The notes under the pieces are model-generated. The model saw only the letters and a list, made by a program, of their open reading frames with translations. It had not been told where the DNA came from and made no database searches. Position numbers and translations under genes: made by a program. From contig CBDIID010000003.1 in assembly GCA_965279515.1 (NCBI GenBank), positions 4,672,001 through 4,736,000 on the forward strand: DNA of 64,000 bases, in the 5' to 3' direction. Shown here piece by piece: positions 11,163-13,956 of this stretch; position 1 is the first letter of the stretch; the number at the start of each line of letters is the position of its first letter. The DNA is from Turneriella sp. GTDB lineage: Bacteria > Spirochaetota > Leptospiria > Turneriellales > Turneriellaceae.

Positions 11163-11999
11163 TCATGCTTCGAAAGGCTCGCTAAGGCGAGGCTCCGCCG
11201 CAGCATGCCGGCTAAAAAGCAAAAATACGAATAGCGAAAAAATCTGCGTGAAACTCGTCGCGGCAAGCGCAGCCTCGACCCCAATATCGGCGCGACCCTT
11301 GTCGAAAAGCAGCATCGCATTCACGAGTGAGAAGGCGATGGCTGCGATAACGGCGAGCGGTTTCAATGCGCCTCGGTCGACGTTCCGCCCTCCATGGCTC
11401 CGTCGACCAGGGAACATCCCTGTTCCCTGCTCACGGTAGAGCAAAACTCCCGTAACAGCGATATTGAGCAGCAGTTGGATGACTCCCACGGCTAAGGGCG
11501 ATGTGTTCGCAGCAAAACTGAAATCGAGCCCTGCGTAGAGCGCAATGATGGTGAGTGCGGCCAGGCTGTATAAGCTGAGCGGAATGGCTTCTTTCCGCAG
11601 TAGATCCCGCCCATGCGCGTCGTATTGCCGCCGCACCTGCCAAAGCCATGCGGCGACCAGCGAAAAAGAATGCGTGGCGACCGAATGAACCCAGGCAAGC
11701 GTCAAGCTGTCGGTATCTGCGGGTGTGCGTTCGGCGGCGAGCATGACATGCCTGAGCAATGGTAGAAAACTTAACAGGTGCGGTATATGCATCAGAAAGG
11801 GAACGCGGCATACCTTGGTGCGCAGCGAGATAAAAATGGAAAAGCCCAACCACTGCAAATAGGTCGCGCCGAGATAGGCGAGCGGCAGCGCCTCACGCAA
11901 AAATACCTGCTTGGGAAGAAAATAAACCAGAACCAGGTGTGCGGCCAAAGCCCCGATCTGCAGGGGCAGGGCGGCGATGAATAGGATGGGTAGTTTCAA
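11163..11999 (-). CDS. Hypothetical polytopic membrane protein
   Basis: 278-aa hydrophobic ORF with TTG start right after the pgsA stop. Confidence 0.55.
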   Translation of the reverse strand: MKLPILFIAALPLQIGALAAHLVLVYFLPKQVFLREALPLAYLGATYLQWLGFSIFISLRTKVCRVPFLMHIPHLLSFLPLLRHVMLAAERTPADTDSLTLAWVHSVATHSFSLVAAWLWQVRRQYDAHGRDLLRKEAIPLSLYSLAALTIIALYAGLDFSFAANTSPLAVGVIQLLLNIAVTGVLLYREQGTGMFPGRRSHGGRNVDRGALKPLAVIAAIAFSLVNAMLLFDKGRADIGVEAALAATSFTQIFSLFVFLLFSRHAAAEPRLSEPFEA

Positions 12000-12000
12000 G

Positions 12001-12558
12001 TTACCCTTTTAGTATCGTGCGGCCATAGGTCTTTGCGTAAGCAAAAATACCGCCGGCAAACACAAACAGCAGGGGTGGAATCGTATATTCGCGGAATGGC
12101 CAGTTGAAAAGGTAAAAAAGCCCCGAAAGCGAAATCATACCCACGCCGAATTTACCCCAGTAGTTAGGTTTACCCAGGACGTTACGCTTAATCAGCAGAA
12201 AACCGCCCCCCACAGTACCGATAATTTCGCGCAGGGCGACGATGATGGTTACCCACAGCGGGTAGTCGCGGTAGATGACGAGCAGAAAAAGCCCCGCCAC
12301 AATCACGATCTTGTCAGCGATCGGATCGAGGTATTGCCCGAGCGGGGTTTCCTGGCCGAGTTTGCGCGCGAGATAGCCGTCGAGGTAGTCGGTCAGCGTC
12401 ATGAACGCAAGTGTCAGCGCTGTGTAGAGGCGGATGCTTTCGATATCGTGTGGGTGCGCGAGAATATACCAGAGCGCGGGTATGCCGAGAATGCGCGAAA
12501 GCGAAAGAACGTTGGAAATCGTCAGGATCCGGTAGGTGAAGAGTTCCCGGACCGTCAT
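12001..12558 (-). CDS. pgsA: CDP-alcohol phosphatidyltransferase (PgsA-like)
   Basis: TDYLDGYLARK...GQYLDPIADK signature. Confidence 0.88.
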   Translation of the reverse strand: MTVRELFTYRILTISNVLSLSRILGIPALWYILAHPHDIESIRLYTALTLAFMTLTDYLDGYLARKLGQETPLGQYLDPIADKIVIVAGLFLLVIYRDYPLWVTIIVALREIIGTVGGGFLLIKRNVLGKPNYWGKFGVGMISLSGLFYLFNWPFREYTIPPLLFVFAGGIFAYAKTYGRTILKG

Positions 12559-12670
12559 CGGCCAACCCCTCCCTGGGTGCCGATGACCCGGTCACGTCGT
12601 GCGACACTGGTCATCTGCCAACCCCTCCGTGACCACTATTGACCTCAGTACACCTTGCACTTTCGGTCAT
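12555..12670 (-). repeat. Tandem 56-nt units, each a hairpin plus a 19-codon mini-ORF
   Basis: Both units read ATGACC-N20-GGTCA-N11-GGAGGGGTTGGC(A/C)G; ORFs 12611-12670 and 12555-12614. Confidence 0.75.
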
Positions 12671-12684
12671 CTGTGGATACTAAC

Positions 12685-13956
12685 TCACTTAATCGCGATA
12701 GTATTGGCGCGGCCCGGCCCTACGGAGATCCAGGCGATCGGTACGCCACAATACTTCGCGAGTGCGTCGACATATTTGCGCGCGTTCTTCGGCAGGTTTT
12801 TCAGCTTCGTGATATGGCTTGTGGGCTCTTGCCAGCCGGGAAATTCTTCGTAGATGACTTTGACATCGCCCACACCGCATGAGGGAAAATAATCAATGCG
12901 TTTGCCGCCAAGCTCATACCCCGTTGCGACCTTAATCGTTTTAAGGTCGTCGAGCACGTCGATTTTTGTGAGTGCCAGTGCGGATAGCCCGTTGATACGC
13001 GCCGCGTGGCGCACGACTTCGACGTCGAACCAGCCGCAGCGGCGCGGGCGGCCCGTGACACTGCCGAATTCATTGCCGGCTTTGCGCAAATTATCGCCTT
13101 CTTCGCCAAAAATTTCCGTGGGATAAGGGCCTTCGCCGACGCGCGTCGAGTATGCCTTCGCGATGCCAATGACGCTCTTCAGGTAGCGGAAAGAAACGCC
13201 GCTGCCCGAAAGCGCGCCGCCGGTTGTCGGGTTAGAACTTGTCACATAGGGATACGTGCCGAAATCGAGGTCGAGCATCGTGCCCTGCGCACCTTCGAGC
13301 AGCACACGTTTGCCCGAGGCCAGCTCCATGTTGAGGTAATAGGGACAGTTGACGATCATGTCGCGCAGTTTTTCACGCAGATCGAGCAGCTTTTCTTTCA
13401 TCTGCTTGAGATCCGTCGGCGGTGCGTCGTACATACGCGTTAAAAGTTTATTCTTCTGCTCGACGAGGCGGGGCAGAATGTTTTCAAAAAAATCGTCGCT
13501 GTAGAGCATGCCGATACGGATACCCTGGCGGTTCACCTTATCGGAATAGCAGGCGCCGATGCCGCGCTTGGTTGTGCCGATCTTATGCACGCCCGAAGCC
13601 TCTTCGCTGCGCACGTCAATTTCCTTATGGTAGGGCATGAGCAGGTGCGCATTGTCGGCAATACGCAGGCGGCCGGCGGGATTAACTCCCTTGGCTTCGA
13701 GTTCAGCGATCTCCTGGAACATCGCATCGGGGTCGATCACCATGCCGCCGCCGAGCACGCAGATGGTGCGCGGGTATAGAATACCGCTGGGAATTAAACG
13801 GAAAATATACTTGTCTTCGCCAACCTTAACCGTGTGCCCCGCGTTCGCCCCGCCCTGGTAACGGACGACGATCTCGGTTTCTTTGGCCAGGTAATCGATG
13901 ACCTTGGCTTTACCTTCGTCGCCCCACTGTGTACCGACGATGAGGGTTGCTGGCAT
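12685..13956 (-). CDS. purA: Adenylosuccinate synthetase
   Basis: QWGDEGK, GGANAGHT, EGAQG, TGRPRRCGWFD; true start MPATLIVG at 13956. Confidence 0.97.
   Translation of the reverse strand: MPATLIVGTQWGDEGKAKVIDYLAKETEIVVRYQGGANAGHTVKVGEDKYIFRLIPSGILYPRTICVLGGGMVIDPDAMFQEIAELEAKGVNPAGRLRIADNAHLLMPYHKEIDVRSEEASGVHKIGTTKRGIGACYSDKVNRQGIRIGMLYSDDFFENILPRLVEQKNKLLTRMYDAPPTDLKQMKEKLLDLREKLRDMIVNCPYYLNMELASGKRVLLEGAQGTMLDLDFGTYPYVTSSNPTTGGALSGSGVSFRYLKSVIGIAKAYSTRVGEGPYPTEIFGEEGDNLRKAGNEFGSVTGRPRRCGWFDVEVVRHAARINGLSALALTKIDVLDDLKTIKVATGYELGGKRIDYFPSCGVGDVKVIYEEFPGWQEPTSHITKLKNLPKNARKYVDALAKYCGVPIAWISVGPGRANTIAIK

Follow-up and report, generated by a model that had tools for sequence, protein, structure and literature searches.

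A dispersed, likely mobile twin-hairpin repeat on the start of a pgsA-like gene in Turneriella, with open frames that would hand ribosomes to the next gene

The window analyzed here is a stretch of 64,000 nucleotides from a Turneriella sp. genome (contig CBDIID010000003.1). On its minus strand, purA is followed by two tandem 56-nt units, A and B, which lead into a gene for a CDP-alcohol phosphatidyltransferase. A preliminary description of this DNA called the latter gene pgsA; the enzyme class stands, but the score falls under the curated cut-off and we write pgsA-like when the product is meant. A second, distant paralog of the gene exists in the source genome. The features of the locus are as follows.

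12685..13956, minus strand: purA, adenylosuccinate synthase (TIGR00184, 518.9 bits)
12671..12684, minus strand: 14-nt spacer from the purA stop to unit A
12615..12670, minus strand: unit A, 56-nt repeat copy; hairpin 1 intact (foot TGACC/GGTCA plus inner stem), hairpin 2 decayed
12611..12670, minus strand: mini-ORF A, predicted, 19 codons; its stop overlaps the ATG of B
12624..12628, minus strand: GGAGG in loop 2 of A, 9 nt ahead of the ATG of B; SD-like and CsrA-like
12559..12614, minus strand: unit B, 56-nt repeat copy with both hairpins; strict descriptor match at 12568-12601
12555..12614, minus strand: mini-ORF B, predicted, 19 codons; its stop overlaps the pgsA-like ATG (12558)
12568..12572, minus strand: GGAGG in loop 2 of B, 9 nt ahead of the pgsA-like ATG; predicted probability of being unpaired 0.78 for four of the five bases
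12001..12558, minus strand: pgsA-like CDP-alcohol phosphatidyltransferase (TIGR00560, 85.5 bits, curated cut-off 109.1)
11376..11429, minus strand: third copy, 54 nt, an 18-codon in-frame insertion in the membrane-protein gene (11163-11999) after pgsA

The mini-ORFs of A and B translate as MTESARCTEVNSGHGGVGR and MTSVARRDRVIGTQGGVGR, respectively, each followed by a stop. The two 56-nt units, their 19-codon frames and the ATGA chaining from A to B to pgsA are all in the sequence as first described, and both units have the TGACC-N20-GGTCA geometry together with inner stems of their own. The -4 stop/start overlap, a feature of termination-reinitiation, is present at A-B and B-pgsA and absent at purA-A; because the purA stop (12685) sits 14 nt before the ATG of A, the chain begins at A and not at purA. 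The mini-ORFs are stop-free frames that would pass ribosomes to the next start. The last bases of the spacer recur ahead of the ATG of B and form a 9-nt direct repeat around unit A. Promoter and terminator scans of 12400-13000 found none, and contigs from four public runs (one study, possibly the same DNA source) match 12200-13100 with no differences and no joints.

Each unit had also been said to end in a strong SD. GGAGG does lie 9 nt before the ATG, and its complement CCTCC is present at the 16S end of the source genome, but the motif is the loop of a second hairpin that had been overlooked. Hairpin 2 has GGAGG in its loop and the next start codon in its stem; B retains it intact, whereas in A it has decayed. 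The central ~10 nt of the unit can pair either with the left flank (the foot of hairpin 1) or with the right flank (the foot of hairpin 2). In B, pairing of this arm with its own 5' foot is predicted at -27.9 kcal/mol and pairing with the stretch holding the pgsA start codon at -29.7 kcal/mol; the lower-energy fold would bury the pgsA ATG, with a predicted gap between the two folds of <2 kcal/mol. Predicted occlusion of the start codon is not specific, since it does not separate filled from empty alleles: the probability that the codon is unpaired is 0.21 here, 0.04-0.64 in three empty alleles and 0.81-0.99 in a one-unit relative (G009). The 146-nt region folds better than shuffled sequences on either strand (z -2.6 minus, -3.1 plus). 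When closed in silico, the units fold as rods, as expected of any two-hairpin unit.

The two units are identical at 33 of 56 positions. Their last 14 nt agree at 13, and the stretches farther upstream at 6/20 and 3/11. The shared tail complements the central arm of B and not that of A, which makes the doublet a mosaic and not a duplicate of uniform age; a doublet at tyrA in G001 resembles it. The A-B doublet probably goes back to a second insertion or to a duplication, with the last 14-19 nt copied in the process. Blastn with the units gave a 19-nt self-repeat as the sole match. In the N20 interior A agrees with the single unit of G009 at 13/20 positions and with that of G011 at 11/20, and A and B are about equally near the G009 unit (13/20 vs 11/20).

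We compared the purA-pgsA junction in 14 genomes of the genus, the source genome included. Four of them (G001, G008, G013, G010) have a gap of 4-12 nt and no unit, four (G011, G009, G002, G003) have one 56-nt unit, and the source genome alone has two, so that the 0/1/2-unit alleles that the preliminary description had suggested looking for are found across the genus. The junctions of the other five genomes hold other inserts, of a 50-nt kind in three (G005, G004, G007) and of further kinds in two. The 50-nt insert (L010:1451-1500, L011, L012) lies at the pgsA start with an ATG-led 17-codon frame and an ATGA overlap, and is unmatched by the family model R2 described below. G009 and G002 have an extra perfect hairpin just after the purA stop and before the unit (L007, L008). 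It leaves the frame running on from the purA stop intact, and shares part of its sequence with the N20 of unit A. A metagenome scan with pgsA gave 80 loci with one close relative, which ended at the gene start and was left out of the comparison, and a fixed junction pattern in GTDB contigs gave two loci, both already in the genome set.

The six 56-nt units at pgsA share a constant geometry, start with ATG or GTG and have no internal stop, and their peptides differ and are not conserved between genomes. Four of the five inner-stem pairs show two-sided change among them, while the outer five are invariant; in hairpin 2, where part of the foot runs one column off, the counts use the apical pairs alone. 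In a six-protein tree the pgsA units fall in three separate lineages (inner nodes weak, 40-75), which implies that units were gained repeatedly at a favoured site, or gained once and then lost several times. The spacers of the empty G001 and G008 alleles end like unit tails; this favours some losses, and such alleles may be losses instead of pre-insertion sites.

A genome-wide search for the literal TGACC-N20-GGTCA pattern, suggested in the preliminary description, gave eight places, two of them A and B, which is chance level; it misses the family because the feet vary. The family plan is two hairpins with loops CA(N)[G/C]GA[T/G]G and CANGGA[T/G]G, mostly 18 nt apart, in a unit of ~54-60 nt. 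GGATG is the commoner form of loop 2 (38/49 copies). Loop 1 of the A, B, G011 and G009 units is without GGA, and the G002 and G003 units have lost the motif from loop 2. Searching the source genome with a strict descriptor yielded 53 matches, vs 0 and 0 in Markov controls. The loop pattern occurs 55 times in the source genome and 15-44 times in each of the 13 relatives, with 0 for the reversed control in all 14. The covariance modeling that had been called for bears this out. A first model, built on the six pgsA units, detects a copy between hisB and hisH at E 1.5e-15 and weaker copies inside genes. The second model, R2, was built on 20 copies with the pgsA units excluded, and 15 of its 17 stem pairs show two-sided change, a figure that leans positive because the copies were picked for having apical stems. 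R2 gives at least 80 matches at E<=0.01 in the source genome (150 of 1561 candidates scored) and detects the pgsA units of G009 (E 0.0017) and G011 (E 0.0062); B scores 17 bits (E 0.12) and A is unmatched at E<=1. Head-to-tail arrays with a period of ~53-60 nt occur in relatives. We concluded that A and B are two copies of a genus-wide dispersed repeat and not an invention of the purA-pgsA junction.

By crude gene calls, 38 of 74 loci lie in predicted CDS and 36/74 on the leading strand, and 38 of 64 copies are in sense orientation (p 0.17), so both orientations occur. The lack of strand bias and the intragenic half of the copies suggest a DNA repeat more than an RNA regulator. The third copy in the window, 1.1 kb downstream of A and B, is matched by R2 at 11373-11433 (40.7 bits, E 1.4e-6); it is missing in 11/11 relatives with covering loci and thus specific to the source genome among the 12 compared. 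A blind loop-enrichment scan of intergenic hairpins gave no clear signal. Across the other genera of the class the pattern is present at least once in 126 of 151 genomes, but the counts are low, in many genomes close to those of the control, and this was not taken as family presence. Several other repeats were seen along the way. In G013 and G010 (L140, L141), family copies are arrayed in the anticodon region of repeated tRNA-like sequences. A separate dispersed family of C-rich/G-rich palindromic repeats is found at G000:C3:2999058, 3605044, 3645278 and 2394265. Two patterns with twin GGA, each in a single copy, are conserved in many species of the class, among them Leptospira-family genomes (e.g., G038:C1:2173239, G053:C1:1650695).

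The repeat also sits on other start codons. The hisB-hisH junction is a plain GTGA overlap in G008 and holds a 56-nt open frame, from TTGA to ATGA, in the source genome, the only one of 14 genomes with this insertion; seven relatives (L163, L165-L167, L170-L172) have a different short palindrome there, which suggests that the site attracts several kinds of repeat. At exbB-exbD (names inferred from sequence) an ATGA overlap in G002 corresponds to a 56-nt open frame in G011. Upstream of coaX, after what is by inspection a degP-like protease gene, units of 59, 59+58, 59, 59+59, 56, 59+60 and 80 nt are found in seven genomes, and the degP-ORF-ORF-coaX order of G002 is the same two-ORF chain as A-B-pgsA. 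The flanking repeat at coaX is made of the first codons of the host gene and is present in the empty alleles, and the central arm tracks the synonymous N-terminal codons of each species. At tyrA, 54 and 108 nt (+18 and +36 codons) are inserted in frame at the overlap, which is a plain NTGA in 8/13 loci.

Among the 18 units at pgsA, hisH, coaX and exbD, 16 are stop-free, 3n-1 nt long and end in NTGA, and of the remaining two, one is fused in frame and the other broken. These counts overstate independence because they come from 4-5 loci and not from 18 separate events. The set derives from an automatic unit walk of 26 rows, from which six running into upstream genes were dropped; two G002 rows and one G004 row at coaX were replaced by hand-set starts, and the 50-nt pgsA inserts are excluded as unmatched by R2. 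Twelve element junctions were compared with 533 others: a full relay chain is present at four of the former and 22 of the latter (p 0.0016), and shuffled spacers would give 1.55 of 12. In this comparison hisH was added via the first model, and pgsA itself counts as no full relay. Two element junctions with a full stop-to-start relay lie at G000:C3:2513505-2513569 and 4788012-4788072; their relays span 22 and 20 codons, and at one of them the element is antisense. The uORFs of the purA-pgsA spacers, counted below, also speak for this behavior. With few loci, a modest excess over shuffled spacers and high null rates for uORFs, the evidence suggests a frame filter on insertions and is not decisive.

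The repeat is likely a non-autonomous mobile element. Empty sites are found in relatives at hisH, exbD and tyrA, against filled alleles elsewhere. No mobilizer was found among Y1 transposases, none was seen beside recent-looking copies in G112 (10 loci), and contigs of four runs contain no excised or joined form. A single Y1 (IS200/RAYT-type) transposase gene at G000:C3:2616100-2616570 (L160) has its own unrelated palindrome at its flanks. Of 43 solo copies, 24 have exact direct repeats of at least 5 nt at their flanks, where the null gives 16.9 (maximum 26); since this is not above the null, target duplication is not general. Direct repeats are visible at pgsA, coaX and the in-frame copy, where a short duplication of the target may have occurred. 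In G112 (L228-L237), a ~95-nt near-identical element carries twin ANGGAK hairpins inside a long enclosing stem and often adjoins Flavo-1 matches around cassette-like genes; that genome has 13 pattern matches.

The reading we prefer, with a probability of roughly 0.6, is that A and B are copies of a likely mobile twin-hairpin repeat on the pgsA-like start, each of them a stop-free 19-codon hand-over frame. The unit would sit between two copies of a short host stretch, here around ATGAC, to which its central ~10 nt is complementary, so that either hairpin could be closed. At an NTGA overlap the old stop, together with a start, would remain in the left copy, and a new stop/start overlap would come from the right one. 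A length of 3n-1 would then give a coupled mini-ORF, as at pgsA, hisH, coaX and exbD, and a length of 3n an N-terminal extension, as at tyrA; 3n+1 or an internal stop would break the hand-over and such insertions would probably be purged. Loop 2, as GGAGG, could double as an SD. The mini-ORF would be a by-product retained by selection on the host gene and not a conserved peptide, and insertions of the REP or RPE type at coupled starts would survive if ribosome hand-over is kept, a filter and not a purpose-built relay. In E. coli and Haloferax, as far as the cited account goes, hand-over takes place at overlaps or very short gaps and coupling drops steeply with distance (PMC10666635). The idea of a portable element that keeps translational coupling, one of two offered in the preliminary description, is thus largely supported by the dispersed family, the junction alleles, the covariation and the behavior at hisH, coaX, exbD and tyrA. 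The part that does not hold is that insertion copies the RBS, because GGAGG belongs to loop 2 of the element itself, where GGATG is found more often.

A bolder version, which we regard as quite unlikely, would make the unit a self-guided micro-element. Single-stranded, ~56 nt long and closed into a rod with ANGGA loops at both ends, it would choose its target by pairing of the central 10 nt, so that every variant goes for its own complementary site, often an NTGAC gene junction, duplicate the site and install an SD, a coupled mini-ORF and a CsrA site, rewiring operon translation without breaking it. Hints in this direction are that the center complements host start codons and tracks them at coaX, that similar centers face similar empty sites at pgsA and exbD, that units closed in silico fold as rods, and that head-to-tail arrays occur.

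The second idea of the preliminary description, a translational relay dedicated to purA and pgsA, would have the junction itself under selection and the repeat as raw material only. In all ten long purA-pgsA spacers a uORF runs up to the pgsA start, compared with 72 of 158 NTGA-starting genes (46%) and with a rate of 17-83% in shuffled pgsA spacers. In five genomes (G011, G009, G002, G006, G008) the stretch between the purA stop and the pgsA start is a single open frame, and purA and pgsA overlap directly in three family-level genomes. However, four of the 14 genomes do without any insert, and in five the units are replaced by unrelated inserts that do the same job. The unconserved peptides, the lack of strand bias, the intragenic position of half the family and the 14-nt gap between purA and A, given the steep drop of coupling with distance in E. 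coli and Haloferax (PMC10666635), also make this relay very improbable. High null rates for uORFs are a point for a history of old, immobile repeats, in which one ancestral unit underwent repeated losses and one local duplication, the pairing came from fold-back (template-switch) copying and not from selection, and the mini-ORFs are untranslated accidents; since pgsA starts with ATGA, an overlapping stop there is automatic. The high divergence of the copies, the decayed hairpin 2 of A and the tail remnants that the G001 and G008 spacers resemble fit this history as well. Nevertheless, species-specific insertions exist (hisH in 1/14 genomes, the in-frame copy in 1/12), the loops are conserved genus-wide and 16/18 junction units keep the frame, and we hold it to be unlikely.

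An explanation compatible with mobility is that the units are co-opted CsrA translation switches, whose GGA loops would be bound, one of them over the SD, and the next gene repressed directly or via the mini-ORF, by analogy with E. coli iraD. Loop 2 fits the CsrA hairpin-loop motif, and in B it would place a GGA in a hairpin loop over the SD, a feature of CsrA leaders; GGAGG stands at the same distance from the ATG in both units. The source genome has a csrA gene, Leptospira CsrA is described as binding a hexaloop with GGA that lies 6-7 nt ahead of flaB starts (PMC8668096), and CsrA has been reported to act through a uORF with a stop that lies over the following start codon (PMC5574718); these three points make co-option a live rival. 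The count of sense copies (38/64) shows no bias, though, and the opposite strand folds equally well. GGA is missing from loop 1 of four pgsA units and from loop 2 of two others, and the element is absent in close relatives. On balance we consider a CsrA switch a minority possibility, less probable than a likely mobile repeat filtered for hand-over.

In the open-access literature we found no description of the repeat or of its junction behavior, bioRxiv supplements lying outside the search, and what is new here is the behavior of the repeat at start-codon junctions. A small repeat colonizes the stop/start overlaps of housekeeping operons and leaves a path open for ribosomes, so that unannotated ORFs of 19-20 codons arise in one step. 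The natural 0/1/2-unit alleles at four junctions make coupling as an insertion filter directly testable, and with the same alleles one can ask whether 'RNA motifs' like TwoAYGGAY represent mobile DNA or ligands of CsrA. Should target choice lie with the central arm, the repeat would be unusually small for a guided element.

The plan of two hairpins in a row, with loops of the A(N)GGA type, recalls TwoAYGGAY (RF01731), which is described as having many copies per genome in variable number, forming doublets and being of unknown function (PMC2864571; bioRxiv 10.64898/2026.09.22.753630). The repeat differs in its unit of ~56 nt against a 168-position model, in loops of ANGGAK or A[G/C]GAK with T or G as the last base (loop 1 of A and B being without GGA), in head-to-tail arrays where doublets there are mainly divergent, and in its placement in frame inside genes and on start codons. 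The TwoAYGGAY basal stem enclosing both hairpins is not in the folds of A, B or relatives; by inspection, an enclosing stem is present in the longer G112 form. The best genome score, 24.4 bits at another copy, is under the gathering threshold of 43, and membership was rejected; Rfam gave nothing over threshold at A/B or in 16 loci with family copies. Two further candidates were set aside. A REPtron (RAYT-mobilized) does not fit, as the sole Y1 gene is flanked by a different palindrome and the nearest family copy is ~25 kb off, and neither does a MITE, with no conserved ends and no fixed target-site duplication. A CRISPR- or attC-like reading was rejected by inspection.

The E. coli iraD leader under CsrA control (PMC5574718) and termination-reinitiation leaders (PMC10666635), as far as those accounts describe them, share with the junctions a short ORF whose stop lies over the next start, a start codon in a stem and a GGA near the SD; those leaders are fixed and tested, whereas in Turneriella the corresponding, putative parts are brought in by a dispersed repeat. 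GTAG/CGTC REPs are likewise short dispersed palindromes, clustered and both intergenic and intragenic, and in the cited text have a terminal tag beside an 8-9 bp stem with a 4-5 nt loop (PMC3733652); column counts of 49 copies revealed no GTAG or CGTC tag, and our units run head to tail. The Rickettsia palindromic elements (RPE) are described as palindromic, ~150 bp, in frame in unrelated housekeeping genes and with a conserved peptide (PMC10969869, PMC3733652), and for the related CGTC class the same source mentions no known dedicated transposase (PMC3733652). The third copy and tyrA show the same in-frame insertion into unrelated genes with absence from orthologs; in contrast to RPE, the units here are 54-60 nt long, sequence-diverse and unconserved in peptide, and also form coupled mini-ORFs at starts. 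We concluded that in its working the repeat resembles elements of the RPE/REP type and in its loops TwoAYGGAY, but that it belongs to none of these groups as defined.
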